A DNA stretch of 64,000 nucleotides. It comes from Escherichia phage fEgEco12. The stretch is taken from the sequence record PP777464.1; one strand, written 5' to 3'. Of this stretch, positions 45,535 through 60,198 are shown piece by piece. Positions within the stretch are counted from its first letter, which is position 1, and the number at the start of each line of letters is the position of its first letter. The notes under the pieces were generated by a model that saw only the letters and a list, made by a program, of their open reading frames with translations, made no database searches and had not been told where the DNA came from. A program made the position numbers and the translations under genes.

Positions 45535-45801
45535 ATGAATATTAAGTATTTTGCGACGCGTGAACAAGCTCGGATCGCCGCACGCCAGGACGGGGCAACG
45601 TTTAAAGATATGGGCGTACAATCGGAACGTGGTAAACGTTGGGCCATTGTAAAGCGTAGTACCGCCAGATCATTACAGTACTGGTTAGCGGCCTTAAAAA
45701 GTCCCGATAGTGTATCGCGTCGAGTGGTAGAAATAAAGCTCGACCGAAAGGGCAACCGCGTGACCGTGTACCGTACTAAAAAGATTGCAGTACTTGAATA
45801 A
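45535..45801 (+). CDS. hypothetical protein (88 aa), KYFATREQARIAAR family
   Basis: paralog of 57853-58248. Confidence 0.5.
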   Translation: MNIKYFATREQARIAARQDGATFKDMGVQSERGKRWAIVKRSTARSLQYWLAALKSPDSVSRRVVEIKLDRKGNRVTVYRTKKIAVLE

Positions 45802-45804
45802 AAA

Positions 45805-45868
45805 GTACTTGCAAACTATGTTTAAAGGCGTATAATGTTTTACATCGAGAGCGGGAACTCTTCCCGCC
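45805..45868 (+). promoter_or_regulatory. promoter + leader stem-loop module
   Basis: TTGCAA 45809-45814, TATAAT 45831-45836, hairpin GCGGGAACTCTTCCCGC. Confidence 0.65.
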
Positions 45869-45882
45869 TATAACCTGGAGTA

Positions 45883-46119
45883 ATGAAAATGACTAATATG
45901 TATATGACTGAAGTTAAAACCGTAAAAGATACTACCACGAATAAAACTACTTACTTACAGCGGATCTGTGGTGTATGGCAACGTATCAGCAAATCAAAGT
46001 ACTTTAAATTAACATCATATGCAAACCGTTCGGATTCATTCAGTACTGAAATAAAAGGTAATAAAGTACACCAATACGGCACTTATTATTATTATAGCCT
46101 GGACGCGATTGCAGTATAA
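45883..46119 (+). CDS. hypothetical protein (78 aa)
   Basis: ATG after GGAG RBS. Confidence 0.5.
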   Translation: MKMTNMYMTEVKTVKDTTTNKTTYLQRICGVWQRISKSKYFKLTSYANRSDSFSTEIKGNKVHQYGTYYYYSLDAIAV

Positions 46120-46149
46120 GCAGTTTACAAATCTTTACAATTGCCGGTA

Positions 46150-46178
46150 TTGACTTATTTTGTCAGTACTGGCATAAT
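46150..46178 (+). promoter_or_regulatory. orphan promoter TTGACT-17-CATAAT (rightward)
   Basis: TTGACT 46150-46155, CATAAT 46173-46178; no ORF downstream. Confidence 0.5.
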
Positions 46179-46293
46179 GTATTCATTGGCAGATAAGCCG
46201 TAGCCCATAGGGTGCGGGAGTGTATCTATAGAAAAAGTAGTTTATTACAGTTACAATTGTGCACCCGGTGGGTTAGCTGTTGTCATGGGGTAT
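46179..46293. ncRNA. candidate small RNA locus between convergent promoters
   Basis: contains TAGCCCATAGGGTGC (46201-46215) and its near reverse complement (46260-46276); no ORF. Confidence 0.3.
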
Positions 46294-46322
46294 ATTATGC
46301 CAGTACTTGATAATGCTGTCAA
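46294..46322 (-). promoter_or_regulatory. orphan promoter on minus strand (TTGACA-17-CATAAT), convergent with 46150
   Basis: reverse complement of 46294-46322 gives TTGACA and CATAAT boxes. Confidence 0.5.
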
Positions 46323-46364
46323 TACTTTTTTTTACTATTCAGTACTGAAAACTATTTTTAAAAA

Positions 46365-46396
46365 GTACTTGCAAACTATGTTTAAAGGCGTATAAT
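46365..46396 (+). promoter_or_regulatory. promoter (TTGCAA-16-TATAAT) upstream of a structured non-coding element
   Basis: TTGCAA 46369-46374, TATAAT 46391-46396. Confidence 0.6.
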
Positions 46397-46397
46397 G

Positions 46398-46486
46398 TTT
46401 TACATCAGGACGGGGAACGAAATAAGTAACTTCCCGTTAAGTAGCCCAGGAGTAAGGCACACGAAAAACTCCCCTGATAAAATAGT
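46398..46486 (+). ncRNA. candidate small RNA / structured leader (copy 1 of duplicated element)
   Basis: about 85 nt between two promoters, no ORF; near-identical copy at 56652-56738. Confidence 0.35.
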
Positions 46487-46514
46487 TTGACAAATGTTTT
46501 TAAAAGCGTATAAT
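46487..46514 (+). promoter_or_regulatory. promoter TTGACA-16-TATAAT for gene 46547
   Basis: TTGACA 46487-46492, TATAAT 46509-46514. Confidence 0.6.
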
Positions 46515-46546
46515 ACTTACATCAACTACTGAATGAGGGTTACAAA

Positions 46547-47158
46547 ATGAAAACTATCACTACTACTACTTTCGTTATGGATTTTTCTGAATTGAACGCA
46601 GAACAAAAAACGTCAGCTATCGAACTGGTTCGGGAACGTGAAAAAAACTCAAACGACAATTATTTTTCTGAAAGTGAAATTGAATACTATAAAGAAACAG
46701 TACTACCGGAATATGGCATTAATGACGCTGAAATACAATTCAGTGGCTTTTGGTCCCAGGGTGACGGTGCATCAATCAGTACTGACCACGTTGACGCAGT
46801 GAAGTTTTTACGCAAGGTAAGAGCATTAACTAAGTATCGCTCAATCCGTCACTTGCTGAATGAAGATGATTTGGCGATGAGTGTAAAGCGTTCGCACTCC
46901 CACTACTCGCATGAGAATACTGTAAGCGGGTACATTGAATCGGCTTACACTGATTTAACCGCAAAACAAGAAACGTTAGTTAATGAGCTTGAGGAACTAC
47001 TCACTGAAACTATTCGTGAATTATCCCGCAAGTTGTACCGTGATTTAGAGAATGCATATGAGGATCAATTCACTACTGAAAACATTACGGCACTGATTGA
47101 GGGTAACGAGTATCAATTCAATGTTATTGATGGCGTAGTGGAATCAATCGAATATTAA
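46547..47158 (+). CDS. hypothetical acidic protein (203 aa)
   Basis: ATG with GAGGG RBS. Confidence 0.6.
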   Translation: MKTITTTTFVMDFSELNAEQKTSAIELVREREKNSNDNYFSESEIEYYKETVLPEYGINDAEIQFSGFWSQGDGASISTDHVDAVKFLRKVRALTKYRSIRHLLNEDDLAMSVKRSHSHYSHENTVSGYIESAYTDLTAKQETLVNELEELLTETIRELSRKLYRDLENAYEDQFTTENITALIEGNEYQFNVIDGVVESIEY

Positions 47159-47166
47159 TTTAAAAA

Positions 47167-47230
47167 GTACTTGCAAACTAAGTTTAAAAGCGTATAATAC
47201 TTTATATCGAGAGCGGGAATAGTTCCCGCT
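47167..47230 (+). promoter_or_regulatory. promoter + leader stem-loop module
   Basis: TTGCAA 47171-47176, TATAAT 47193-47198, hairpin AGCGGGAATAGTTCCCGCT. Confidence 0.65.
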
Positions 47231-47250
47231 ACTAATGAGGAATACTACAA

Positions 47251-47415
47251 ATGAATACTTTTACCTTCGCTCAATTGAACGCCCTGGATGTATTGTCTGA
47301 TGCTTTGCGGGATGCAACTGAAAGCGGTTTATTTGACAATGTTGACATTCACCCTGATGTAATTAATAATTTTTGTGATGCTATCGCAGAAGTACTGGAA
47401 GATCTAAAAAAATAA
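47251..47415 (+). CDS. hypothetical small acidic protein (54 aa)
   Basis: ATG after module with GAGGAA RBS; below track cutoff. Confidence 0.45.
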   Translation: MNTFTFAQLNALDVLSDALRDATESGLFDNVDIHPDVINNFCDAIAEVLEDLKK

Positions 47416-47421
47416 TAGAAA

Positions 47422-47485
47422 GTACTTGCAATTAGTTTTCAGTACTGTATAATGGTTTACATCAAAGGGAGAAATGGTTCTCCCT
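47422..47485 (+). promoter_or_regulatory. promoter + leader stem-loop module
   Basis: TTGCAA 47426-47431, TATAAT 47448-47453, hairpin GGGAGAAATGGTTCTCCC. Confidence 0.65.
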
Positions 47486-47503
47486 GGTAATGAGGAAAAT
47501 ACA

Positions 47504-47725
47504 ATGGCTAATATCACTACTCTTTCCCAACTGGAAGCACTGGTTAAATCTATGCGGGAACATGCTGACAAAATCGGCGTACAAGATCCAGCCGTTTGCT
47601 TCTGCGACGAATTGAATGATGATACCCTGGTAATAGCAGAAGTCCAGGACGTTTCTAACTATTCCTCGCGTTACACTGGCGGCGTAGCAAATAAAGGTGA
47701 CTTCTGTTTATACCTTACAAAATAA
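47504..47725 (+). CDS. hypothetical protein (73 aa)
   Basis: ATG after GAGGAAA RBS. Confidence 0.5.
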   Translation: MANITTLSQLEALVKSMREHADKIGVQDPAVCFCDELNDDTLVIAEVQDVSNYSSRYTGGVANKGDFCLYLTK

Positions 47726-47728
47726 CAA

Positions 47729-47760
47729 CGCGGGGAGATAATAACTCCCCGTTACTTTTT
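47729..47760 (+). terminator. intrinsic terminator hairpin CGGGGAG..CTCCCCG + T-run
   Basis: 7-bp stem then TTACTTTTT. Confidence 0.6.
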
Positions 47761-47839
47761 CAGTACTGAATCATTTAATAGACGGATCTCGGCACCCGGT
47801 GGGTTAGTGACAGTTTCGTCTTGATGTAATAATTATGCC

Positions 47840-47876
47840 AGTACTGGATGCACTTGTCAACAACTATTTTTTCAAA
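47840..47876 (-). promoter_or_regulatory. orphan minus-strand promoter (TTGACA-17-CATAAT) reading into the 3' end of gene 47504
   Basis: reverse complement gives TTGACAAGTGCATCCAGTACTGGCATAAT; leader carries the TAACCCACCGGGTGC motif. Confidence 0.45.
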
Positions 47877-47890
47877 TACTTTTTATTAAA

Positions 47891-47950
47891 ATACTTGCAA
47901 TTAGTTTTTAAACGCGTATAATGTTTTGCATAGGGGGAGCGGTTCCCCTG
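47891..47950 (+). promoter_or_regulatory. promoter + leader stem-loop module
   Basis: TTGCAA 47895-47900, TATAAT 47917-47922, hairpin GGGGAGCGGTTCCCC. Confidence 0.65.
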
Positions 47951-47969
47951 GTAACTAAGGAATAAGAAA

Positions 47970-48206
47970 ATGCTTGAACAAATCAAATCAACGTCTGCGA
48001 ATGTAACGGGAACGGTAGTACACTTTACTAGTGATGAATCGCGGGGTGTACCCTATTGTGCTGTACATGTAAACACTGAGGGTAACTACTGGTTTACGGT
48101 TTACGGATCATATTCATTTGGACGGCCTGGGCATCAAAAAATTCTGGATAAAGTACAACCAACGGGTAAAAATATCACGGCTGAAATGTTTTATAAAAAA
48201 TCATAA
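47970..48206 (+). CDS. hypothetical protein (78 aa)
   Basis: ATG after AAGGAA RBS. Confidence 0.55.
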   Translation: MLEQIKSTSANVTGTVVHFTSDESRGVPYCAVHVNTEGNYWFTVYGSYSFGRPGHQKILDKVQPTGKNITAEMFYKKS

Positions 48207-48271
48207 AGTACTTGATAATAGTTTTTAGTACTGTATAATATTTTACATCGCAAGGGGGAGCGGTTCCCCCT
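48207..48271 (+). promoter_or_regulatory. promoter + leader stem-loop module
   Basis: CTTGAT -35, TATAAT 48234-48239, hairpin GGGGGAGCGGTTCCCCC. Confidence 0.6.
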
Positions 48272-48290
48272 GGTAACTAAGGATAATCAA

Positions 48291-48590
48291 ATGAAAATTG
48301 CAATCATCGCCCTGGCTTTATCTGTTTCCTCTTTCGCTGTTAATGCGTCATTAGATGTAAGTAGTGAAAAATTCATTCAGTGCACTGTTGCAATGACCGA
48401 TGAAAGAACTGGCGAGATTGTATTAAAGGATTTAGAGATCCAGCCGGAAGCATTTAAAAACGGCCCGTTCCATGAAGAAGACGAAAACGGTAGCACAACA
48501 ATTTATTATGATGCCAGTACTAAACGCGGTTCGGTCACTGTTATGGATACCGAGAAAGTAACTCATACCGGCGTTATTAATTGCCGTTGA
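48291..48590 (+). CDS. putative secreted protein (99 aa)
   Basis: signal-like N-term MKIAIIALALSVSSFAVNA. Confidence 0.55.
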   Translation: MKIAIIALALSVSSFAVNASLDVSSEKFIQCTVAMTDERTGEIVLKDLEIQPEAFKNGPFHEEDENGSTTIYYDASTKRGSVTVMDTEKVTHTGVINCR

Positions 48591-48611
48591 TAGATACTAC
48601 GGGGTAACATC

Positions 48612-48842
48612 ATGACTAAGCGAATTGTTTTACTTAACGAAAGCAGTACTACACAACTACTTAACGCCGTGCATTATGATATTGAAACGAGCGTTAATCT
48701 TATCAGTACTGTAGTTCTGTTGGACACTGGAAAGGTAGCCAATGATAAAGCGATTGCAGGTATACTAACGGATCTTGTGCCTGGTAGCAGTGCACCAATA
48801 ACGTTAAATGGTAAAGTGTTTAATATTTTACTCACTGATTAA
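48612..48842 (+). CDS. hypothetical protein (76 aa)
   Basis: ATG ORF. Confidence 0.5.
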   Translation: MTKRIVLLNESSTTQLLNAVHYDIETSVNLISTVVLLDTGKVANDKAIAGILTDLVPGSSAPITLNGKVFNILLTD

Positions 48843-48847
48843 GTACA

Positions 48848-48870
48848 TAGCCCACCTGGTGGGCTTTTTT
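48848..48870 (+). terminator. intrinsic terminator AGCCCACC/TGGTGGGCT + T6
   Basis: hairpin + TTTTTTG. Confidence 0.7.
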
Positions 48871-48924
48871 GTTTTTGTAGTATCGTAGTACTGAGATACT
48901 TTGAAAATAGTTTTAAAAAAGTAG

Positions 48925-48952
48925 TTGACATTACCACAGAAAAGCGTAGAAT
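48925..48952 (+). promoter_or_regulatory. promoter TTGACA-16-TAGAAT with long structured leader
   Basis: TTGACA 48925-48930; about 120-nt leader resembling the 46398 element. Confidence 0.5.
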
Positions 48953-49075
48953 GTATTACATCAAGACGGGGAGCACTAAGTAGACCGCCAGTAAGTCGAA
49001 CGAAAAACTGGACACGTCGAGAAAACTTTGATACACTAATAAACGTAAACTAAACTTTAATTGAGGATTTATAAA

Positions 49076-49558
49076 ATGGCTAATGTAAAATCATTCATCA
49101 AAGCACTGGTAGCAAATGAAACTAACGTCGCGGCTGAGATCCTGGCTGAACTGGATAACGATACCATGAAAGCGGTACGCAATAATTTTAACATCGCGTA
49201 CAGTACTGCGAAAGAACTACAAGCAAATAAAGCGGCAGAAATTGAAGCGGCAAAGGCGGCCCGTGAAGCAGAACTACAAGCAACAATCGAAAGTATTCAG
49301 GCGGCAGTAGTTGGATTGGATCTGGAAGTAGTTACAGAGATGGCACAAAAAGCCCTGGCGGTTAAGTATGGGGAAGACAAGCCAGAAGTAAAAGCCAAAA
49401 AATGGATTCAGGAACGCGTAGCGGTAGTACTGGACAACGGGGAAGAATATCTGATTCCGGTGCGTGGTAACTGTATTGCGGTAGTACTGGACGCGATTAA
49501 CTCCAGTGGTATGACTCGCGAGGAATGGATCGAAGCTCATCGCAAAGTTGAAGCATAA
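49076..49558 (+). CDS. hypothetical alanine-rich protein (160 aa)
   Basis: ATG after GAGGA RBS; track start 49061 is TTG. Confidence 0.55.
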   Translation: MANVKSFIKALVANETNVAAEILAELDNDTMKAVRNNFNIAYSTAKELQANKAAEIEAAKAAREAELQATIESIQAAVVGLDLEVVTEMAQKALAVKYGEDKPEVKAKKWIQERVAVVLDNGEEYLIPVRGNCIAVVLDAINSSGMTREEWIEAHRKVEA

Positions 49559-49578
49559 CAATTAAAGTACTGAATCAC

Positions 49579-49607
49579 TAGCCCACCTTAAACAGTGGGC
49601 TTTTTTG
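49579..49607 (+). terminator. intrinsic terminator GCCCAC..GTGGGC + T6
   Basis: hairpin + TTTTTTG. Confidence 0.7.
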
Positions 49608-49623
49608 TGTCTATAGTATTCCA

Positions 49624-49720
49624 GGCCACCAGCACCGCCTAGAAACGATTCTAACGCATTAAACTGATTATCTGATGCATCGCCCTAGCTGGTGGCGTTA
49701 AGGTCGTTAGAATGCGATTG
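49624..49720. repeat. interleaved inverted repeats (CCACCAGC/GCTGGTGG and TTCTAACGC/CGTTAGAATGCG)
   Basis: X-Y-X'-Y' arrangement; contains Chi octamer at 49688-49695. Confidence 0.4.
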
Positions 49721-49756
49721 AGAGCGTTTAAAGTATTTTGCAAAAAGTAATAAAAA

Positions 49757-49790
49757 GTACTTGCACGATTAAGAGATTAGCGTATAATTA
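49757..49790 (+). promoter_or_regulatory. promoter TTGCAC-16-TATAAT
   Basis: TTGCAC 49761-49766, TATAAT 49783-49788. Confidence 0.6.
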
Positions 49791-49833
49791 ATTACATCAA
49801 GGCGAGACACCTTAACTAACTGAGGATATAAAG

Positions 49834-49986
49834 ATGAATACTTATGAACTGGATTGTTTTACTTTACAAGTAATGTCAGTATGCAGTAAGAAAGATTGGT
49901 CATCAAAGGAATTTAAAGCAGTTATCGCGTGTGCAAAACACGGCAAGACTATCAATGAAACGGCATCAATCATTGATAAACTTTAA
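49834..49986 (+). CDS. hypothetical small protein (50 aa)
   Basis: ATG after GAGGA RBS; paralog of 53710-53853; below track cutoff. Confidence 0.45.
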   Translation: MNTYELDCFTLQVMSVCSKKDWSSKEFKAVIACAKHGKTINETASIIDKL

Positions 49987-49994
49987 AAAATAGT

Positions 49995-50023
49995 TTGACA
50001 ATAGTTTTAAGTACTGGCATAAT
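49995..50023 (+). promoter_or_regulatory. promoter TTGACA-17-CATAAT
   Basis: TTGACA 49995-50000, CATAAT 50018-50023. Confidence 0.6.
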
Positions 50024-50056
50024 ACATACATCAACTACTGAATAGGAATTAAAAAA

Positions 50057-50284
50057 ATGGCTATTATCATTACTCGCGTATCTGGTACTACTGGCAACGA
50101 ACAAGTAGTTGCAGTCATTACCAACAAGGAAGGTGCGGAATTGCAAAATGCAATGAATACCTGGGCCGTTAATGAGTTCGGTCAGTGGGCAAGTGTAGCA
50201 TACATTGAAACCTATCAAGTGCCGTCGATTAGTTTAACTGATTTGGGCGTTGAGCGTATCCTTTGCCTGGATGAATTAAATTAA
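50057..50284 (+). CDS. hypothetical protein (75 aa)
   Basis: ATG with AGGAA RBS. Confidence 0.55.
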   Translation: MAIIITRVSGTTGNEQVVAVITNKEGAELQNAMNTWAVNEFGQWASVAYIETYQVPSISLTDLGVERILCLDELN

Positions 50285-50288
50285 AAAA

Positions 50289-50352
50289 GTACTTGCAAAG
50301 TAAATCGAATAAAGTATAATACATTACATCAAGGGGAGAAATGATTCTCCCC
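50289..50352 (+). promoter_or_regulatory. promoter + leader stem-loop module
   Basis: TTGCAA 50293-50298, TATAAT 50315-50320, hairpin GGGGAGAAATGATTCTCCCC. Confidence 0.65.
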
Positions 50353-50369
50353 ACTACAAGGAAACTAAT

Positions 50370-50513
50370 ATGAAAACTTGTCAATGTGGTCAGAAATCTA
50401 TTACGGGTTTAAAGCGGGGCGTTGCTCTTTGCCAGTACCATTATAATTTACAAGTATGGGGTAAAGAATGGGCCGACCAGGTGGAAGCAGCAAAGAAAGC
50501 AAAAAGTAAGTAA
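50370..50513 (+). CDS. small cysteine-containing protein (47 aa; CxC..C..H)
   Basis: ATG after AAGGAAA RBS; below track cutoff. Confidence 0.45.
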   Translation: MKTCQCGQKSITGLKRGVALCQYHYNLQVWGKEWADQVEAAKKAKSK

Positions 50514-50525
50514 AAATATTATCAC

Positions 50526-50561
50526 AGTACTATTGACATAGTTTGATAGTACTGGCATAAT
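50526..50561 (+). promoter_or_regulatory. palindrome-embedded promoter (AGTACTAT-N12-ATAGTACT spanning -35 TTGACA; -10 CATAAT)
   Basis: TTGACA 50533-50538, CATAAT 50556-50561. Confidence 0.6.
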
Positions 50562-50602
50562 AGATTTTATCAAGACAACATATTAATTTAAGGAATACAA
50601 AA

Positions 50603-50926
50603 ATGGCTAAAACTATCATTAACACCGTTTCCCTGGCTGCAATCCGTGCAATCAATGTTGACGGTAAACGTTGGACTGATTCATATGGCAATACTTATCA
50701 TTCTTGTCATGTAAGCGTCGAACTGGATAACGGTTTGAATGATCTGGCGGTTGAATCATTTACTTATGGCTATGAAGATGCATATCAACAAACGGCGTTA
50801 GATCTATTAAAGGAATCAGTAGACGGGCTTAATACTGATGAAACCTCCCTTACTCGTTTGTGCAATGATCTTAATATCCCGTTGCATTGTACTGTACAGA
50901 ATGTTAAACGCAAAAAAGATCTTTAA
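50603..50926 (+). CDS. hypothetical protein (107 aa), RWTDSYGNTYHSC family
   Basis: paralog of 57434-57757. Confidence 0.55.
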   Translation: MAKTIINTVSLAAIRAINVDGKRWTDSYGNTYHSCHVSVELDNGLNDLAVESFTYGYEDAYQQTALDLLKESVDGLNTDETSLTRLCNDLNIPLHCTVQNVKRKKDL

Positions 50927-50940
50927 TTAGCTTTACTTTA

Positions 50941-50972
50941 TGCAGATACTTTGATATAGTGTCTGCATAGGG
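50941..50972 (+). other. intergenic hairpin TATGCAGATACT..AGTGTCTGCATA
   Basis: 11-bp inverted repeat with one mismatch. Confidence 0.45.
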
Positions 50973-51006
50973 GAAAGAAATTAAATTAACTTAAGAGGAA
51001 CGTATA

Positions 51007-51276
51007 ATGAAAAATATCAGTACTTTAATCGACGCAGGTACACATGTTCGGCGGTCTATGGTTGCAACCAGTACTACAAAACAAGTAGCGAGCGGTTATC
51101 TTGTATTTGTGCACGATGGTAAACTACTGGAACGTTCAATCAATTTTGATGTTAAAAACAATTGCCGTTTTATTATCTTTAAGCGTGAGCAATATAAAAT
51201 TGATTTACCAGCAAAGCCCATTAGTGGGGCGTACAACGTGCAATCATTGTTTGAACGTCAACCATACACCTATTAA
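51007..51276 (+). CDS. hypothetical protein (89 aa)
   Basis: ATG with GAGGAA RBS. Confidence 0.55.
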   Translation: MKNISTLIDAGTHVRRSMVATSTTKQVASGYLVFVHDGKLLERSINFDVKNNCRFIIFKREQYKIDLPAKPISGAYNVQSLFERQPYTY

Positions 51277-53356: not shown

Positions 53357-53368
53357 AAATATTATCAC

Positions 53369-53404: not shown

Positions 53405-53439
53405 AACTTTTATCAACTACACTACTAAGGAATTAAAAA

Positions 53440-53619: not shown

Positions 53620-53630
53620 AATATATTACC

Positions 53631-53665
53631 AGTACTATTGACATAGATTGATAGTACTGTATAAT
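53631..53665 (+). promoter_or_regulatory. palindrome-embedded promoter variant
   Basis: TTGACA 53638-53643, TATAAT 53660-53665. Confidence 0.6.
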
Positions 53666-53709
53666 AAGTTTTATAAACAGTAGTTAACTTAACCTAAGAG
53701 AGAAATAAA

Positions 53710-53853
53710 ATGATCGCACTGGATTCATTCATCGACGCAGTACTGGCAAAAACTGGCGAGGATCTGACCGCAGAACAATACGCGATGATCGAGCAATGTC
53801 AGCAAAACGGTAAATCGGTGAAAGATACTGTTAAGATTATCCGCAAGATGTAA
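53710..53853 (+). CDS. hypothetical small protein (47 aa)
   Basis: ATG after AGAGAGAAA RBS; paralog of 49834-49986. Confidence 0.45.
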   Translation: MIALDSFIDAVLAKTGEDLTAEQYAMIEQCQQNGKSVKDTVKIIRKM

Positions 53854-53859
53854 TATTAT

Positions 53860-53890
53860 AGCCCACTGGTTAACGCTGGTGGGCTTTAAT
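53860..53890 (+). terminator. hairpin GCCCAC..GTGGGC containing a Chi octamer
   Basis: inverted repeat after stop; weak T-run; GCTGGTGG 53875-53882. Confidence 0.45.
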
Positions 53891-53958
53891 CATTTACCCT
53901 ATACAATGCCAGTACTAAACCGTTTATCTCGTTAGAATGCGTTACAGGACGTTTGACA

Positions 53959-54156
53959 ATGATTAGCATGAAATCAGTACAAAAACAAATAGAAACATTA
54001 TCAAAAATTAAACGTAAACAGTACTCGTTAGAATATACAATCAATGGTAACTATCATCTAATGAAAGAGAATAATTTCATTGTCATTGATGAATCATTGC
54101 AAGTTATTAGTATAGTACTGAAAGCATTAATCAATGACAGAAAAAAATTAAAATAA
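53959..54156 (+). CDS. hypothetical protein (65 aa), uncertain
   Basis: AT-rich ORF without a clear RBS; track start is TTG. Confidence 0.3.
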   Translation: MISMKSVQKQIETLSKIKRKQYSLEYTINGNYHLMKENNFIVIDESLQVISIVLKALINDRKKLK

Positions 54157-54160
54157 TCTA

Positions 54161-54189
54161 TTGACAATATCCTCCAGTACTGGCATAAT
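54161..54189 (+). promoter_or_regulatory. orphan promoter TTGACA-17-CATAAT
   Basis: TTGACA 54161-54166, CATAAT 54184-54189; leader carries AACCCATAGGGTGCAC. Confidence 0.5.
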
Positions 54190-54250
54190 ACTTACATCAA
54201 GACGAGAACGTCACTAACCCATAGGGTGCACAAATGTAACTATATAATAT
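54190..54250 (+). ncRNA. candidate short transcript with ACCCATAGGGTGC motif
   Basis: no ORF downstream. Confidence 0.3.
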
Positions 54251-54251
54251 C

Positions 54252-54324
54252 GATCAATAAATGATCAAAAAAGTACTGGATCAATTTAGCATAAGGCGTA
54301 TAATTCTGATCAATTCTTGATCAA
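54252..54324 (+). promoter_or_regulatory. cluster of five GATCAA repeats around a promoter (TATAAT 54299-54304)
   Basis: GATCAA at 54252, 54263, 54279, 54308, 54319; two pairs spaced 11 bp. Confidence 0.5.
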
Positions 54325-54485
54325 AGGCAATATACGCAGTTGAATTTATATAGACAGTACAAAGGCGTTACTATTCGTGGTAATGCTGGTGGATATGTAG
54401 TATCATATGGTTTGAATAAGATAAACACTAGTAGTATTATTGTAGCATTACAGTACTATAGTATTTTTATAATGAGGTTAAAATA

Positions 54486-54743
54486 ATGGCAGTAGGATAC
54501 GCGAAAGACGGGGCCGAACAAGACGAGATTCATGCAGTGATTCAGGCCGCCGTTAACCACGCTAGAAAGCAAATTAACGCACAAAGAGAATCACTTGTAC
54601 ATTGCCTCGACTGCGGCGATAAAATCCCTGAGAATCGACGCCAGGCCGTTATAGGGTGCATGTATTGTATTACTTGCCAGGAGGATCATGATAGTACTTT
54701 TAAAAGAGATCCGCGTAATTGTTGGCATAGATCTATGAGATAA
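54486..54743 (+). CDS. TraR/DksA-family C4 zinc-finger protein
   Basis: CLDCGDKIPENRR...CMYCITCQ C-x2-C-x17-C-x2-C motif. Confidence 0.7.
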   Translation: MAVGYAKDGAEQDEIHAVIQAAVNHARKQINAQRESLVHCLDCGDKIPENRRQAVIGCMYCITCQEDHDSTFKRDPRNCWHRSMR

Positions 54744-54748
54744 AAAGT

Positions 54749-54776
54749 ATTGACAGTACTGAAAGATAGTGTATAA
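54749..54776 (+). promoter_or_regulatory. promoter TTGACA-16-TATAAT
   Basis: TTGACA 54749-54754, TATAAT 54771-54776. Confidence 0.6.
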
Positions 54777-54806
54777 TGTTTTATATCTTAACTGAGGATA
54801 GTAATC

Positions 54807-55163
54807 ATGGGAATACAACATATCACGCGTACTACTGACAATGGCGAGATCACTGGCTATCAAGTACAGGGCAAAGTAGCACAATTGCAGTACTGGTTTG
54901 TTAAACGTGGAATCATTGCACCGGATCTTGATTATGACCGTGTAGCGTTTATTGATTCTCTTTATGTTGATCCTGATAGTCGGGGCAATGGTGAAGGTAA
55001 CGAATTAATGAATGCCTTTATTGATGCCGCCGATGATTCAGATTGTATCATCTTAGAATGCGATACGGGAGAAGATAACGCCTTTAATCTTAAAGAATGG
55101 TACGAAGGTTTCGGATTCGAGGTATTGATAGATAGTGAATATCCTATCATGATTTTATCATAG
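54807..55163 (+). CDS. GNAT-like N-acetyltransferase (small)
   Basis: VDPDSRGNGEGNELMNAF resembles GNAT motif A; C-terminal Y..GF. Confidence 0.5.
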   Translation: MGIQHITRTTDNGEITGYQVQGKVAQLQYWFVKRGIIAPDLDYDRVAFIDSLYVDPDSRGNGEGNELMNAFIDAADDSDCIILECDTGEDNAFNLKEWYEGFGFEVLIDSEYPIMILS

Positions 55164-55166
55164 TAC

Positions 55167-55223
55167 TTGCATTTAGTTTTCAGTACTGTTATAGTACTTG
55201 CATCAAGGGGAAACATCTTCCCC
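55167..55223 (+). promoter_or_regulatory. promoter + leader stem-loop module
   Basis: TTGCAT, TATAGT, hairpin GGGGAAACATCTTCCCC. Confidence 0.6.
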
Positions 55224-55241
55224 TACTAAGAGGAAATAAAA

Positions 55242-55430
55242 ATGGAAAACTTATCAAGTATTTTAGTACAAGATGATTTCGGTAATCCTGGAAGTGCTAT
55301 CATTGTTCGGGGCAATAAAGCAACGTTTGTTATTGCTGGTGGACCCGTACAGCGTAGCATTAAAAATAATGCTGTTACCATTAATAATGTACGCTATCGC
55401 TTAGATAAAGAATTAATTCATAAACTGTAA
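55242..55430 (+). CDS. hypothetical protein (62 aa)
   Basis: ATG after AGAGGAAA RBS. Confidence 0.5.
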   Translation: MENLSSILVQDDFGNPGSAIIVRGNKATFVIAGGPVQRSIKNNAVTINNVRYRLDKELIHKL

Positions 55431-55457
55431 TATTAATTTAATAGAGGATAACAATAA

Positions 55458-55781
55458 ATGTACATTCATACTACTGTCACAAAGGAAGTCCGTTGCCAGT
55501 TCGAAAGTATTCCGGGCGTATGTTTCATCACTGGTACGTTTTCCCCTGGTGATCGTGATAATCCAGTACTGTTACAGTTACGCCATCCATTATGGGATAA
55601 AGCATTTGATCTGCCGTTGAATGAATTCGCAACCACTGCTGATAAGTACATTAAAAATATTCGCGAGAATGATTGCCTATTCATTAATGCTTTTAGTGAT
55701 GCCGCGTTAAGTGAGATCCATGCTGTATTGGTTGCAATCATGGAATCAATGGAGAAAACTATATTCAAACAAGGTGAATAA
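55458..55781 (+). CDS. hypothetical protein (107 aa)
   Basis: ATG after GAGGA RBS. Confidence 0.55.
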   Translation: MYIHTTVTKEVRCQFESIPGVCFITGTFSPGDRDNPVLLQLRHPLWDKAFDLPLNEFATTADKYIKNIRENDCLFINAFSDAALSEIHAVLVAIMESMEKTIFKQGE

Positions 55782-55786
55782 AAACT

Positions 55787-55846
55787 ATTGACAATGCAAT
55801 CCAGTACTGTATAATAGTTTACATGAAGGGGAGAAATGATTCTCCC
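55787..55846 (+). promoter_or_regulatory. promoter + leader stem-loop module
   Basis: TTGACA 55787-55792, TATAAT 55808-55813, hairpin GGGGAGAAATGATTCTCCCC. Confidence 0.65.
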
Positions 55847-55864
55847 CACTAAGAGGAAAGAAAA

Positions 55865-56077
55865 ATGCAAGGTCAACTAATCGTTCGTAAATGGTCTGAT
55901 ACTAACGAAAAACCGTGGGATGTACAATACATCGCCCCAAATGGTGAATCCAGATATCAACCAGGTGTAACGCATAGTACTGAGCAATTCGCCGCCGCTC
56001 ATCGCGAACGTCTGTTACAATCAATGCAGCAAGGTTCCGGTGAAAAATTCATTCAGGATCATTGGCTGAAAGATTAA
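55865..56077 (+). CDS. hypothetical protein (70 aa)
   Basis: ATG after AGAGGAAAG RBS. Confidence 0.55.
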   Translation: MQGQLIVRKWSDTNEKPWDVQYIAPNGESRYQPGVTHSTEQFAAAHRERLLQSMQQGSGEKFIQDHWLKD

Positions 56078-56085
56078 AAAAGTAC

Positions 56086-56143
56086 TTGCACAGTACTGAA
56101 TAAAGTGTATAATGTTTTATATCGGAAGGGGAATAGTTCCCCT
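56086..56143 (+). promoter_or_regulatory. promoter + leader stem-loop module
   Basis: TTGCAC 56086-56091, TATAAT 56108-56113, hairpin AGGGGAATAGTTCCCCT. Confidence 0.65.
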
Positions 56144-56164
56144 CCTAACAAAGAGGAAAGTATA

Positions 56165-56338
56165 ATGGTCCAGGTAGAATTAACAGTACTGAAAGATCTG
56201 TTTTATCGGATTGGTACTACTGGCGAATATCCGAAGGGTGATAATGCAAAACTTTACGTATCACTCGACTTATGGCAACGCGAACAATTAGCAACGGCCT
56301 GGCGTAAAGGCAAAGCAGATCGAGAGGTGAAAGCATGA
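56165..56338 (+). CDS. hypothetical small protein (57 aa)
   Basis: ATG after AGAGGAAAG RBS. Confidence 0.5.
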   Translation: MVQVELTVLKDLFYRIGTTGEYPKGDNAKLYVSLDLWQREQLATAWRKGKADREVKA

Positions 56339-56484
56339 AAGAATTCTTATTTGAAGTAGTGTTTCAAGGTGTCGGTAATAACCAACTGATTCGATCAAGT
56401 GGTTATAATGTTAACCAGGCATGGAATAACATTAAACAAATGTACCCGAACGCTATCACATATCGCAACCCGAAAGAAGTTTAA
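56335..56484 (+). CDS. hypothetical small protein (49 aa)
   Basis: ATGA overlap; below track cutoff. Confidence 0.4.
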   Translation: MKEFLFEVVFQGVGNNQLIRSSGYNVNQAWNNIKQMYPNAITYRNPKEV

Positions 56485-56498
56485 AAATATTTGAAAAA

Positions 56499-56532
56499 GG
56501 GATTGACTCCGGTCAGTCCCTTTGCTATTATA
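56499..56532 (+). terminator. composite terminator-promoter (GGGATTGACTCCGGTCAGTCCC; -10 TATTAT)
   Basis: hairpin + TTTGC; TTGACT inside stem. Confidence 0.65.
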
Positions 56533-56622
56533 TACGCATAGAAACAAATTAGCCCACAGGGTGCATAAATGTATCTATTGTTTGCTGGTGGCTAGTACTG
56601 AAAACTATTTTTAAAAAAGTAC
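56533..56622 (+). ncRNA. candidate short transcript with TAGCCCACAGGGTGCATAAATGTATC motif and Chi octamer
   Basis: no ORF; GCTGGTGG 56584-56591. Confidence 0.3.
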
Positions 56623-56650
56623 TTGCATTGTACTTAGAATCAAGTATAAT
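56623..56650 (+). promoter_or_regulatory. promoter TTGCAT-16-TATAAT
   Basis: TTGCAT 56623-56628, TATAAT 56645-56650. Confidence 0.6.
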
Positions 56651-56651
56651 G

Positions 56652-56738
56652 TTTTACATCAGGACGGGGAACGAAATAAGTAACCCCGTTAAGTAGTCCA
56701 GGAGTAAGACATACGAAAAACTCCCCTGATAAAATAGT
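56652..56738 (+). ncRNA. candidate small RNA / structured leader (copy 2 of duplicated element)
   Basis: near-identical to 46398-46486; no ORF. Confidence 0.35.
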
Positions 56739-56766
56739 TTGACAATAGAAAGTAAACGAGTATAAT
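56739..56766 (+). promoter_or_regulatory. promoter TTGACA-16-TATAAT
   Basis: TTGACA 56739-56744, TATAAT 56761-56766. Confidence 0.6.
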
Positions 56767-56799
56767 ACTTACATCAACCACTGATAAGGAAACATTAAA

Positions 56800-57075
56800 A
56801 TGCGGACTTTACTTACAGCTAACGAAATCGAGCAAGTACTGACTACTAATCTGGAACAATGGAAACGTGAAGCAGATATCCAGGCGGTTCAATGCCTTAA
56901 CGATAAGTTAACGCCAGATGACTTAAGCACGATTGTTGATCCACAATTTTATGAAGATATTCACGACACGTCTTTAAGCGTCGAGGATGTACTTGATAAG
57001 CACTACATTGATACTGATTTACATGTTTACGGTCGTAAAAACTTTATCACTATTCACGACATTTACAATACTTAA
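56800..57075 (+). CDS. hypothetical protein (91 aa)
   Basis: ATG after AAGGAAA RBS. Confidence 0.55.
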   Translation: MRTLLTANEIEQVLTTNLEQWKREADIQAVQCLNDKLTPDDLSTIVDPQFYEDIHDTSLSVEDVLDKHYIDTDLHVYGRKNFITIHDIYNT

Positions 57076-57078
57076 GTA

Positions 57079-57140
57079 TTGACAAAGTATCTTAGTACTG
57101 TATAATAGTTTACATCAAGTGAGGGGAAACGGTTCCCCTC
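57079..57140 (+). promoter_or_regulatory. promoter + leader stem-loop module
   Basis: TTGACA 57079-57084, TATAAT 57101-57106, hairpin GAGGGGAAACGGTTCCCCTC. Confidence 0.65.
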
Positions 57141-57163
57141 CTAACAAAGAGAGAGAAATAAAA

Positions 57164-57346
57164 ATGGCTAAGTGCACTATCTGTAATAAAGAAATAGTAT
57201 TAGTTCCAAGTGCCCGTGAACGTGCCGCTCGGTTCGGTGGCAAAGCGTCAGACTATACAAAAATGTTTACTGCCCATACAGCTTGCCAGGTAGCAAAACG
57301 TTCACAAGAAAGCGTAGAATTAATGCGTAAACTTTCCAAAAAATAA
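57164..57346 (+). CDS. small protein with CxxC (60 aa)
   Basis: ATG after AGAGAGAGAAA RBS. Confidence 0.5.
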   Translation: MAKCTICNKEIVLVPSARERAARFGGKASDYTKMFTAHTACQVAKRSQESVELMRKLSKK

Positions 57347-57349
57347 GTA

Positions 57350-57411
57350 TTGACAAAGTATCTTAGTACTGTATAATAGTTTACATCAAGCGAGGGGAAT
57401 AGTTCCCCTCC
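57350..57411 (+). promoter_or_regulatory. promoter + leader stem-loop module (duplicate of 57079-57140)
   Basis: TTGACA 57350-57355, TATAAT 57372-57377, hairpin GAGGGGAATAGTTCCCCTC. Confidence 0.65.
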
Positions 57412-57433
57412 TAACAAAGAGAGAGAAATAAAA

Positions 57434-57757
57434 ATGGCTATGATCCTTGCCCAGAAAGTAGAATTGAAAATTGTAACCTCCTTTGACATTAACGTTAATC
57501 GGTGGACTGATTCACACGGCAATACTTACCACTCTTGCTACGTGTCTGCGTTAATTGGCGACCGCTGGGAAGACCTGGGACACGAAACCTTTACATACGG
57601 TTACGGTACACAAGGCGAATACACGGGCTTGGAGATCATTAAAGAAACCGTTATAGGTTTCAACCCGAAAGAAAAAGTTATTCATCGCATCGAGGAAGAG
57701 ATCAACAAAGAAATAACAGTTCGCTACCACGATGTAAAACGTAAGAAAGACATGTAA
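57434..57757 (+). CDS. hypothetical protein (107 aa), paralog of 50603-50926
   Basis: shared NRWTDSHGNTYHSC block. Confidence 0.55.
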   Translation: MAMILAQKVELKIVTSFDINVNRWTDSHGNTYHSCYVSALIGDRWEDLGHETFTYGYGTQGEYTGLEIIKETVIGFNPKEKVIHRIEEEINKEITVRYHDVKRKKDM

Positions 57758-57788
57758 TAGAATCCATTTAAAGTACTATTTGACATTG

Positions 57789-57817
57789 CCCAGATAGTAC
57801 TTTATAATAGACTCTAA
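57789..57817 (+). promoter_or_regulatory. promoter TTGACA-17-TATAAT
   Basis: TTGACA 57789-57794, TATAAT 57812-57817. Confidence 0.6.
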
Positions 57818-57852
57818 CTTGTAGTACTAACTCAACTAATAGGATGTATACC

Positions 57853-58248
57853 ATGATTACTAAATTCTACGCTACCCGTGAAGCTGCCCGTATTGTTGCA
57901 CGCGAGGAAGGAGCAGCATTTAAAGACATGGGCAAAGATGCAACGAAAGGACAACGCTGGGCCGTACAGTTCAAAGAAATCTCTGATATTGTGAATTCAC
58001 CTGAGCCAGTACTGACAGCAGCAGAACTAAAACGAGCGGATATGCTGGCGGCAATACTTGACGCACAAGATGAGTTTATCGCTGATTCTGATATCAAAGT
58101 ACAGGTAAACCACACCGCATGGACTCACGCGGATCACCTGGCAAACCTTAAGCGTCCAAGTGAACTGATTCGCAACCAGAAAGAGATCCGACATGATCGT
58201 AAGGGTAATCGTGTAACAGTATACAGTAAACGCCGCCAGGTTATCTAA
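57853..58248 (+). CDS. hypothetical protein (131 aa), paralog of 45535-45801
   Basis: shared KFYATREAARI...RKGNRVTVY blocks. Confidence 0.55.
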   Translation: MITKFYATREAARIVAREEGAAFKDMGKDATKGQRWAVQFKEISDIVNSPEPVLTAAELKRADMLAAILDAQDEFIADSDIKVQVNHTAWTHADHLANLKRPSELIRNQKEIRHDRKGNRVTVYSKRRQVI

Positions 58249-58270
58249 TAACTTGCAGTACTAACAACAC

Positions 58271-58295
58271 GGCGGGATCAGTTCCCGCCTTTTTT
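58271..58295 (+). terminator. intrinsic terminator GGCGGGATCAGTTCCCGCC + T6
   Basis: hairpin + TTTTTT. Confidence 0.7.
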
Positions 58296-58309
58296 ATAGG
58301 ACAAACAAA

Positions 58310-58564
58310 ATGATTAAGGTTCAACTATATAAAGATAACATCTTACGGGTACACTATAAAGCACCTCAGAGAATCATCACAAAGGCCGTACAGCTTGCTA
58401 ATGAGTTTATTAATGGTAACCTATTACCTAGGAAGTTAAGCAACGGGAAACTGCGTGTAATCGACGTGGACACTAACAACAGGATAGTAATCGAGAACAC
58501 AGGAAAGATAAACCTTTATGAGCATCAACAATACAATAAGAAAATAAAACTAATATCACGTTGA
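58310..58564 (+). CDS. hypothetical protein (84 aa)
   Basis: ATG ORF. Confidence 0.5.
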   Translation: MIKVQLYKDNILRVHYKAPQRIITKAVQLANEFINGNLLPRKLSNGKLRVIDVDTNNRIVIENTGKINLYEHQQYNKKIKLISR

Positions 58565-58589
58565 CAGTACTCAATTGTTTTAGTACTAT
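58561..58589 (+). promoter_or_regulatory. promoter TTGACA-17-TACTAT
   Basis: TTGACA 58561-58566; duplicated at 58837. Confidence 0.55.
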
Positions 58590-58617
58590 GTACACATACC
58601 AACACGGGAGAAACAAA

Positions 58618-58836
58618 ATGAAATTATCTAAAATCGAAAAGAAAACTATTGATGAAGCAGTTAAGCACGGTTATACCTTTCGTAATGATTCACATTTTAC
58701 CAATTTTCAACAAGGGTATCGTACTATTAAAAAACTAATTGACAAAGGTTTATTAGTTGAAGTCAATAACGGTAACGGTATCGAGTATCAACCAACACAG
58801 GACGCATTTTATTTTAAGAAATATAATATTATCTAA
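58618..58836 (+). CDS. hypothetical protein (72 aa)
   Basis: ATG after GGGAGAAA RBS; track ORF begins at TTG within the promoter. Confidence 0.5.
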   Translation: MKLSKIEKKTIDEAVKHGYTFRNDSHFTNFQQGYRTIKKLIDKGLLVEVNNGNGIEYQPTQDAFYFKKYNII

Positions 58837-58865
58837 TTGACAGTACTCAAATGTTTTAGTACTAT
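58837..58865 (+). promoter_or_regulatory. promoter TTGACA-17-TACTAT (duplicate of 58561)
   Basis: TTGACA 58837-58842. Confidence 0.55.
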
Positions 58866-58893
58866 ATGTACATACCAACACGGGGGAAACAAA

Positions 58894-59136
58894 ATGATTA
58901 CTTTAGAAAAACGTATCAAAGAAACTACATCGCTGGTGGAACTGTTAACAGTACTCAAATGTAAAACAACACCATTCAGCACGCCGGACTTTATTAATAT
59001 GGTTGATGTTAATGGTCGCTATCGTATCACGGTCGAACAAGGAGCGGCGAAAGTATTCAGTACTAAAAACACGAAGGAAGTGATCCACGCCGTTAATGTT
59101 AAAAAAGTAGTTGCCATTGATAGTAAAGTACTGTAA
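58894..59136 (+). CDS. hypothetical protein (80 aa)
   Basis: ATG after GGGGGAAA RBS. Confidence 0.5.
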   Translation: MITLEKRIKETTSLVELLTVLKCKTTPFSTPDFINMVDVNGRYRITVEQGAAKVFSTKNTKEVIHAVNVKKVVAIDSKVL

Positions 59137-60195: not shown

Positions 60196-60198
60196 GTA

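Follow-up and report, generated by a model that had tools for sequence, protein, structure and literature searches.

Two kinds of repetition meet in the right arm of a 64,000-nucleotide stretch of Escherichia phage fEgEco12 (sequence record PP777464.1; the whole stretch is called the window below). Several small genes occur there as diverged pairs, and some of the regions upstream of small genes recur almost verbatim. The original prediction explained both by ongoing duplication and module shuffling, with a promoter–leader–start module that travels with its gene or is swapped between genes. This raises the question of what the repeated module is and whether it moves genes. We find that the right arm is the direct terminal repeat (DTR) of the phage and that a promoter cassette, often with a leader stem-loop, precedes almost every small gene in it. 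Comparison with related phages makes it very probable that this is an array of early host-takeover genes in a 21-kb DTR, each with a portable cassette, and that homologous exchange between cassette copies shuffles the genes in the manner of the promoter and stem-loop cassettes (PeSLs) of T4-type phages.

The right arm is a direct terminal repeat

The window covers the final 64 kb of the genome of a jumbo coliphage of the fEgEco12/121Q type in the genus Asteriusvirus, and shows 89–99% identity to the ~350-kb phages JNE01, JP4, SP27, Ecwhy_1, phAPEC6 and 121Q. In the JP4 record one segment is present twice in tandem, with a junction that corresponds exactly to window positions 64000|43008, and the linear record of G17 terminates at window position 64000. 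The fEgEco12 paper gives a DTR of the same 20,993-bp length, verified by PhageTerm and restriction analysis, and describes the phage as a close relative of Ecwhy_1 (PMC13070987). The JP4 junction, the G17 end and the matching length therefore identify the right arm as the DTR of this phage (Table 1).

Coding sequence makes up 71% of the array within the repeat. A 14.5-kb stretch has matches in 141 phage records, just one of which covers at least 80% of it, and does so in eight pieces; for a control stretch, 7 of 64 records reach this coverage, in 2–5 pieces each. Positions 22000–36500 were tried as a 'core' control and proved unusable, being a variable array of RCC1-repeat genes. According to the annotation of related records, this series ('regulator of chromosome condensation'-like) spans 22000–42000 on the − strand, and it is highly mosaic between phages, with 0 records covering 80%.

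A promoter cassette precedes almost all genes of the array

Repeat finding returns families of 17–24 copies, and the three repeated modules of the original prediction belong to ~30–44 related cassettes. Their coordinates and their similarity both hold: 57079–57166 and 57350–57436 agree at 84 of 88 positions, 58561–58620 and 58837–58896 at 55 of 60, and 50515–50561 and 53360–53404 at 44 of 47, the last match extending to 67 nt at 94%. The description was incomplete in that it missed the size of the family and its setting in a terminal repeat. It also lacked a further pair, 60188–60281 and 60679–60772.

In our catalogue a ~90-nt cassette stands in front of almost all of the 52 small + strand genes. 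Its elements follow a constant order: an A-rich stretch ('AAAAAGTAC') ending in AGTAC(T), a −35 element (TTGACA or TTGCAA), a spacer of 16–17 nt, a −10 element (TATAAT or CATAAT), the start box TTTACATCRA, often a stem-loop, a Shine–Dalgarno sequence (SD) and ATG. Class A cassettes combine TTGCAA with a hairpin, class B cassettes TTGACA with a hairpin, and class C cassettes have TTGACA-17-CATAAT and no hairpin. When a profile built from 24 cassettes is run with nhmmer, the 21-kb DTR yields 29 hits, exclusively on the + strand, versus 1 in the other 43 kb. An independent consensus scan yields 12 perfect (12/12) σ70 promoters (TTGACA-16/17-TATAAT) and ~20 further sites matching at 10–11 of 12 positions, again all on the + strand. 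The closest cassette pairs (0.96, 0.91 and 0.88 identity) are neighbours and flank non-homologous genes.

The sole cassette-like site of the window outside the terminal repeat lies at 13539–13610 on the + strand, where TGACA...CAGTACTGTATAAT is followed by a hairpin (GGGGATGA/TCATCCCC) and an SD.

The leader stem-loop is under selection

A stem of 6–9 bp (for example GGGGAGAA/TTCTCCCC) is present in 24 cassettes and lacking in ~20, of class C and others. Stems are typically 8 bp long with loops of 3–5 nt, their 5′ arm is purine-rich and their 3′ arm pyrimidine-rich, and whole-leader folds containing them reach about −12 to −15 kcal/mol. Their geometry is fixed, with a start 12–14 nt past the −10 element and an end 17–24 nt before the ATG, leaving an AGGA/GAGG-type SD between stem and start codon. 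We counted stem pairs by script in a loop-anchored register, the MAFFT alignment having put 3-nt and 4-nt loops out of structural register. Pairing holds at 187 of 192 positions, against 164 ± 2.6 when 3′ arms are permuted among copies (0 of 5,000 permutations reach the observed value), and double-sided changes (G-C/A-T/C-G) occur at four stem levels. The stem core contains six G·T wobbles and no A·C, and purines account for 184 of 189 bases of the 5′ arm, which indicates that the transcript-sense strand folds. Selection acts on the stem-loop as a structure of the + strand.

A terminator scan of the array calls none of the 24 leader hairpins, which are followed by ACTAA, TGGTAA or CTAACA and by no T-run; the ~9 canonical terminators of the array, which do have T-runs, are separate from them. 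Because the leader hairpin lacks a T-run and is not called by the scan, we read it as a 5′-terminal element of the mRNA, for which the role of stabiliser or insulator is more likely than that of terminator. Units that resemble a terminator plus a promoter do occur at four composite sites (52498, 56496, 59765 and 62517), with a stem over the −35 element and a T-rich tail after it, and ARNOLD terminators are annotated in G17 at the equivalent sites.

Gene gain and loss between relatives is bounded by cassettes

We aligned the repeat to eight relatives, breaking the alignments at indels (strict gap X-drop) and allowing overlaps. This gives 22 large indel events, with 37 of 44 breakpoints intergenic or no more than 12 nt from the end of a coding sequence, compared with 36% expected. 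Junction homology of 43–108 nt occurs at five deletions and one insertion, among them the deletions of the genes at 57164, 58618 and 60279, the deletion at 61274|61568, and the insertion at 50503–50579. Genomes that lack the gene in question carry a single chimeric cassette, with left-type diagnostic bases at its left and right-type bases at its right. The 57164–57346 gene, for example, is missing from JP4, 121Q, phAPEC6 and UE-S1, leaving one chimeric cassette and a junction homology of 97–108 nt. The switch point differs between 121Q and the other phages for the 60279 gene, and between phAPEC6 on the one hand and JP4 and UE-S1 on the other for the 57164 gene; these are therefore independent homologous exchanges.

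Two of the three module pairs in the original prediction are thus the cassettes that flank presence/absence genes, and the third marks a site where Ecwhy_1 and 121Q have an extra gene. At this class C site (50507–50573) the two phages add a 213-nt gene and a second class C cassette, with 77 nt of junction homology. The added gene was considered as a paralog of the 53144 gene (g53144), which it is not; it is another gene between two class C cassettes. Replacement is seen as well. The slot at 47217–47419 has at least four alternative contents, and in several relatives the cassette upstream of the 56165 gene is swapped for a 30-codon hydrophobic open reading frame (ORF), with breakpoints at the stop and start codons. 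The chimeric cassettes at presence/absence genes, together with the occurrence of the same gene behind different cassette classes, bear out the proposal that modules are shuffled and that the cassette is a movable, exchangeable unit.

The paralogs are old

All three predicted gene pairs are paralogous. The first (45535–45801 and 57853–58248) matches by blastp with E 3e-19 and 34% identity, its N and C termini being conserved around a middle insertion, and both members belong to phrog_8127. The second (50603–50926 and 57434–57757; g50603 and g57434) aligns over its full 107 amino acids with E 3e-29 and 39% identity, and both members belong to phrog_6246. For the third (49834–49986 and 53710–53853) BLAST gives no match even at E 100. 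Its Smith–Waterman score is 57, against 20.1 ± 4.0 for shuffled sequences (z ≈ 9), and 0 of 2,000 shuffles reach it, so these are real but distant paralogs. Among the 52 right-arm proteins BLAST finds no further pairs, Smith–Waterman comparison having been run on the third pair alone. Pfam has no match for any of the paralogs. The AlphaFold2 model of the 50603–50926 protein has a predicted local distance difference test (pLDDT) score of 85 and a weak match to an RNase H-like fold.

The claim of ongoing gene duplication is not supported, given that the paralogs are 27–39% identical and the g50603 and g57434 orthologues checked in Asteriusvirus are 99–100% identical. The phrog_6246 family comprises three lineages that are 32–39% identical to one another, while the within-lineage orthologues compared across the genus are 96–100% identical. 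At a single locus some phages have lineage alpha and others gamma; the nearest relative of gamma outside the genus is a protein of the rV5-like phage W70 (76% identity). The age of these lineages, their alternation at a locus and the rV5-like relative therefore point to cassette replacement or lateral exchange and not to recent duplication in situ. The cassettes upstream of pairs 2 and 3 are of unrelated classes, and the upstream regions of pair 1 share just the −10 neighbourhood (0.71 identity versus 0.60 for shuffles), which indicates that a gene and its cassette are inherited separately.

Immediately to the left of the DTR, at 40935–42705 on the + strand, nine paralogous genes of ~60–77 codons lie head to tail. 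Their products are 25–58% identical and have a common (H)KEYY motif, and the genes have no individual promoters. At the corresponding position the annotation table of 121Q lists ~17 genes of similar size. Unlike the cassette array, these genes reflect genuine tandem duplication.

The cassette extends beyond the genus

Every Asteriusvirus record matched contains the cassette. It is found in RaK2-like phages at 74–80% identity, lying under the annotated terminal repeats of Muenster and fENko-Kae01, and its −10/hairpin/SD part occurs in rV5-like Vequintavirinae at 84–89%. In W70 (137 kb) classes A, B and C stand before homologous genes in a different gene order. The encoded proteins are 89% (g50370), 89% (g45209), 83% (g50057), 66% (g52706) and 58% (g53144) identical to those of the window. 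Gene and cassette class are again uncoupled: the W70 homologue of g45209 has a hairpin-less class C cassette, unlike the class in the window, and that of g50057 has a hairpin where the window copy has none. Cassette classes are thus common to an unrelated phage subfamily at 84–93% nucleotide identity. The g63169 family extends to Eneladusvirus, RaK2-like phages and Krischvirus, and the PeSLs of phage JSE upstream of a gene of this family match the cassettes, in register, in their upstream AAAAGTAGTTGACA, their −35 element and their CATCGAAA start box.

These observations allow a broader, tentative proposal, which we think has a minority chance of being correct: that Asteriusvirus and RaK2-like, rV5-like and RB49-type phages form an inter-family exchange network in which phages with common hosts trade single early genes through one homologous promoter/start-box/hairpin cassette. 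The jumbo-phage terminal repeat might then be a concentrated 'gene market' which, with the Chi sites, palindrome and 85-nt leader RNA described below, would constitute an undescribed recombination-and-regulation architecture.

A model of cassette exchange and its alternatives

In the model that we favour, nearly every small gene would own a ~90-nt portable expression cassette, whose near-consensus σ70 promoter would be read by unmodified host RNA polymerase, presumably early in infection. The stem-loop would begin ~5–7 nt past the predicted transcription start. The ~30 similar copies all face the same way, so that homologous exchange between them would delete, insert, replace or reorder single genes, each time leaving a working promoter before the next gene. 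The partners could be copies in one genome or in co-infecting phages, and exchange might also run through excised circles of gene plus cassette. Most near-verbatim pairs would be the two cassettes flanking a recently inserted or not-yet-deleted gene, and the paralog pairs would be old family members circulating as cassettes.

Several observations weigh against this model. The binomial p of ~1e-10 for the breakpoint positions overstates the case because purifying selection alone also leaves intergenic breakpoints, and the 22 large indel events are not all independent. One event (49798|50044) leaves 32 unrelated nt in place of a clean cassette-to-cassette exchange, and two (51458|51602 and 51694|52025) have breakpoints within genes. 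A general rule that neighbouring cassettes are more alike was expected and then dropped, the effect being weak (0.672 for neighbouring versus 0.659 ± 0.008 for random pairs, p ~0.06) and just a few flanking pairs fitting it. The transcription start, the early timing and the effect of the hairpin are deduced from the DNA and not from transcripts. Finally, 5′ stem-loops of the ompA type protect against RNase E, and for such protection the 5–7 unpaired 5′ nucleotides predicted here would be borderline.

Genes might instead be duplicating in situ now with their promoters carried along, the repeats being young tandem or dispersed duplications. Three real paralog pairs exist, the members of pair 1 share their −10 neighbourhood, and a genuine tandem array of paralogs lies just outside the repeat. 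We nevertheless judge this account unlikely: the paralogs have diverged far beyond the g50603 and g57434 orthologues, pairs 2 and 3 stand behind unrelated cassette classes, the near-identical cassettes flank non-homologous genes, and the phrog_6246 lineages alternate at one locus, one of them being closest, outside the genus, to a rV5-like phage. Another explanation denies the repeats any role in recombination and takes them to be convergent or conserved consensus signals (σ70 promoter and 5′ hairpin), with gene-disrupting indels lost. Consensus promoters necessarily resemble one another, breakpoints that survive in an array that is 71% coding would be intergenic anyway, and the general adjacency effect is weak. 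Yet identity runs through non-consensus positions, in the spacer and in the part of the leader that separates the stem from the SD (84/88 and 55/60), deletions leave exactly one cassette with the crossover at different points in different phages, junction homology extends over 43–108 nt, and the classes persist at 84–93% nucleotide identity in an unrelated subfamily, all of which makes coincidence of signals improbable.

The role of the stem-loops is a separate matter. They could be transcription terminators or attenuators as in the PeSLs of RB49 and phi1, so that the cassette stops upstream transcription and then restarts it. A phi1 PeSL stem-loop cut read-through like a strong terminator (PMC2839356), and the four composite sites have a stem over the −35 element and a T-rich tail. 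The 24 leader hairpins, however, lie downstream of the −10 element and of the predicted start, the sequences that follow them contain no T-run, the scan calls none of them, and the array has ~9 canonical T-run terminators of its own; we therefore give this reading a low but real chance. A site-specific, integron-like exchange, in which hairpins would be attC-like sites for a dedicated recombinase, is suggested by the superficial resemblance of an integron array to cassettes with a structured repeat between genes. It is highly improbable, since different phages have their crossovers at different points of the cassette, hairpin-less cassettes also recombine (58561/58837 and 50503–50579), and 8-bp stems with loops of 3–5 nt are unlike attC. 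In addition, Pfam finds a weak kinase match and no recombinase among the ten of 52 right-arm proteins scanned. Homologous exchange between cassettes remains the reading that we prefer.

Table 1 Features of the terminal repeat and its cassette array (window coordinates)
Feature	Position	Strand	Details
Direct terminal repeat (DTR)	43008–64000	+	20,993 bp; encloses the whole right arm
Array of 52 small genes with ~29–44 promoter(-hairpin)-SD-ATG cassettes	44657–63171	+	Repeat finding, catalogue and nhmmer profile
Cassette starts by nhmmer, first part	44657, 45117, 45799, 46356, 47159, 47416, 47883, 48201, 48911, 49750, 50281, 51793, 52024, 52613	+	
Cassette starts by nhmmer, rest	53056, 55154, 55779, 56073, 56610, 57071, 57342, 59882, 60189, 60680, 61228, 61565, 62207, 63075	+	
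Class B cassette	57079–57166	+	TTGACA-16-TATAAT, start box ACATCAA, hairpin GAGGGGAA/TTCCCCTC, SD, ATG; left flank of 57164–57346
Class B cassette	57350–57436	+	95% identical to 57079–57166; right flank of 57164–57346 and promoter of paralog g57434
Hairpin-less cassette	58561–58620	+	TTGACA-17-TACTAT; left flank of 58618–58836
Cassette	58837–58896	+	92% identical to 58561–58620; right flank of 58618–58836
Class B cassette	60188–60281	+	Left flank of 60279–60683; 0.91 identity to the 60679 cassette
Class B cassette	60679–60772	+	Right flank of 60279–60683
Class C cassette, no leader hairpin	50507–50573	+	TTGACA-17-CATAAT with flanking AGTACT
Class C cassette	53350–53416	+	94% identical to 50507–50573
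60-aa Cys-rich gene (phrog_8738)	57164–57346	+	Present in window, JNE01, Ecwhy_1, SP27, G17
72-aa gene	58618–58836	+	Missing from SP27, one chimeric cassette left; junction homology 61 nt
134-aa gene (phrog_1915)	60279–60683	+	Missing from JP4, SP27, 121Q, phAPEC6, UE-S1; junction homology 75–99 nt
Hypervariable slot	47217–47419	+	One 165-nt gene in window; 526–1152 nt of other genes in eight relatives between the same two flanking cassettes
Composite terminator/promoter	56496–56531	+	12-bp stem AAAGGGATTGAC/GTCAGTCCCTTT overlapping TTGACT −35, then TTTGC and TATTAT
Other composite terminator/promoter copies	52498–52533, 59765–59800, 62517–62552	+	
Paralog 1a (phrog_8127)	45535–45801	+	
Paralog 1b (phrog_8127)	57853–58248	+	Central insertion
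Paralog 2a (phrog_6246, lineage alpha)	50603–50926	+	Lineage gamma takes the same locus in SP27, phAPEC6, UE-S1
Paralog 2b (phrog_6246, lineage beta)	57434–57757	+	
Paralog 3a	49834–49986	+	Missing from Ecwhy_1, JP4, SP27, phAPEC6; breakpoints just past the start boxes of both flanking cassettes
Paralog 3b (phrog_34103)	53710–53853	+	

Motifs that accompany the cassettes

The palindrome AGTACT occurs 290 times in the window, against 23 ± 4 expected, and its extended form CAGTACTG 73 times against 1.08 (~70-fold), an over-representation that is unusual for a phage. AGTACT is densest at 42909–44612 and in the cassettes, where it takes two fixed positions, against the −35 element in 16 cassettes and against the −10 element in 12. 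Each of the eight Asteriusvirus loci compared shows this enrichment (5.6–6.7 per kb), which is absent from W70 (1.0 per kb) and JSE (0). The palindrome might serve as an operator for a dimeric regulator, or it may be a site of modification. Neither the fEgEco12 paper nor a text search for the motif mentions AGTACT or CAGTACTG, and a hit to the extended form in a paper on an integron in a phage proved to be merely a primer. Reading 'TACTGTATAAT...' as a LexA box was abandoned, the second half-site being missing on inspection.

The left end of the repeat (43008–44650) comprises ~1.6 kb in which no gene is convincing. This stretch abounds in palindromes of the form (T)CAGTACTG(A), has the short direct repeats CTAGACGnnTGGACGG (five copies) and TGGATTTTGGGCGTAG (three copies), and holds a divergent pair of Chi sites at 43585 (− strand) and 43597 (+ strand); the 1.7-kb non-coding stretch around the left boundary of the repeat includes 13 copies of CAGTACTG. 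This region may contain packaging, end or replication signals.

The Chi sequence of E. coli (GCTGGTGG) is found 20 times in the window (2526–62639), against 0.68 ± 0.86 expected (~29-fold), on a strand that follows gene direction. Twelve of the 20 sites fall in the terminal repeat (43585–62639), 10 of them on the + strand, the active orientation for RecBCD entering from the right genome end (64000). One − strand site, at 43585, is 577 bp from the left boundary of the repeat. Several sites (49688, 53875, 54385, 56584 and 62632) occupy spacers between genes or the stems of terminators. All eight relatives resemble the window in how many sites they have and in how these divide between the strands, with 8–13 on the + strand and 1–2 on the − strand.

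An ORF-less element of ~85 nt, which we call L, lies at 46398–46482 and 56652–56734, with a class A promoter before it and a second promoter immediately after. It is nearly invariant across nine phages, with nine distinct copies; it is 93% identical in the unrelated W70 and more conserved than the neighbouring genes. In the fold of L an outer stem encloses two hairpins (−19 to −21 kcal/mol, with z −1.7 and −3.0). L has no Rfam match and is a candidate small RNA or put-like antiterminator. A further element, X (CCCAYAGGGTGC...TGTATC), occurs at 44265, 46204, 52560, 54218, 56549, 59827 and 62570, each time over ~23–36 nt. It sits just past most terminator/promoter composites or a TTGAC(A/T)-17-CATAAT promoter and before the next cassette. 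No significant RNA fold is predicted for X; short TTG-start ORFs are annotated over it in some records, but two copies that we compared differ mostly by amino-acid-changing substitutions.

Gene content of the array

Eight PHROG matches among the array proteins are each of 'unknown function', and the Pfam scan of ten right-arm proteins returned nothing above cut-off. The weak kinase match of that scan (Pkinase, E 0.004, under the family cut-off) is to the 194-aa protein encoded at 59168–59752, which one related record labels as kinase domain-containing. The array also encodes a DksA/TraR-type zinc-finger protein (54486–54743) and a GNAT acetyltransferase (54807–55163), the gene for the latter being cleanly missing from G17 between two cassettes. 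Rfam gives no match at gathering thresholds in the whole window, a permissive Rfam scan of the repeat gives just two chance-level matches, at terminators or leaders, and a tRNA search finds none.

Implications

Our model would extend the PeSL mechanism beyond the classical T4-like phages, to 350-kb jumbo coliphages and rV5-like phages. PeSLs offer one of the rare concrete molecular accounts of the way in which lytic phages turn over accessory genes without broken expression, and their presence here would explain the mosaic terminal-repeat gene content of therapeutic Asteriusvirus isolates. The genes at 57164, 58618 and 60279 and the contents of the 47217–47419 slot would be the most recently exchanged candidates for host-takeover or anti-defence functions. 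The cassette may be reusable in phage engineering as a compact, naturally insulated unit for strong early expression, and the Chi and AGTACT enrichments provide testable starting points for work on how jumbo phages protect their genome ends and regulate their early genes.

Comparison with known systems

PeSLs were defined in RB49 and phi1 as cassettes of σ70 promoter and stem-loop in hyperplastic regions, which mediate modular shuffling and can form mini-circles (PMC2839356; PMC4122927). Known holders are the T4-type phages RB49/phi1/JSE, PST/T4 and nt-1/KVP40 (Arbiol et al. 2010, PMC2839356; Comeau et al. 2014, PMC4122927). The cassettes described here occur in Asteriusvirus (RaK2-like) and also in Vequintavirinae, which are not T4-type. 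Five defining features of PeSLs are found in the array: a σ70 promoter, a stem-loop, an SD and start codon, many copies in a hyperplastic region before ORFans, and indels bounded by the motif. The likeness extends to the details, with a motif of ~90–100 nt, an AT-rich upstream part, a σ70 consensus promoter, a G-run/C-run stem-loop, SD and start codon, dozens of copies in a plastic region before small ORFans, and motif-bounded indels or replacements between close relatives that leave a chimeric copy. With the PeSLs of JSE the cassettes share AAAAGTAGTTGACA upstream and the CATCGAAA start box in register, as well as at least one gene family.

The differences concern the stem and the setting. 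In RB49-type PeSLs the stem usually straddles the −35 or −10 element and acts as a terminator, and in JSE the G-run/C-run stem straddles the −10; here it is fixed in the transcribed leader and has no T-run. Canonical terminators are separate in the array except at the four composite sites, AGTACT palindromes abut the −35 and −10 elements, and the array forms part of a DTR, 21 kb long, in a jumbo phage of 350 kb.

The CBB paper reports T4-like replication and late-transcription components in the RaK2-like group, and RpoD-like promoters with UP-like elements that are concentrated in the early region, before short hypothetical ORFs, and reach into a ~22-kb terminal repeat (PMC5259590). The array resembles this early region of CBB and RaK2-like phages in its host-type promoters before short ORFs and in its reach into the terminal repeat. 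In the CBB, fEgEco12 and rV5 papers, searched by term, promoters are described at most, with no leader stem-loop, cassette structure or shuffling role, and a full-text literature search for 'PeSL' found nothing on this phage group. The layout is also like that of the T5 pre-early region, where small host-takeover genes with strong host-type promoters lie in a long direct terminal repeat. The leader is arranged like ompA-type mRNA stabilisers of E. coli, which have a short GC-rich hairpin near the 5′ end, upstream of an unobstructed SD, although the optimum of that type has fewer unpaired 5′ nucleotides than the 5–7 we infer. On sequence grounds, the array thus appears to be a PeSL-type system, distinguished by the placement of its stem in the leader and by its location in a terminal repeat.

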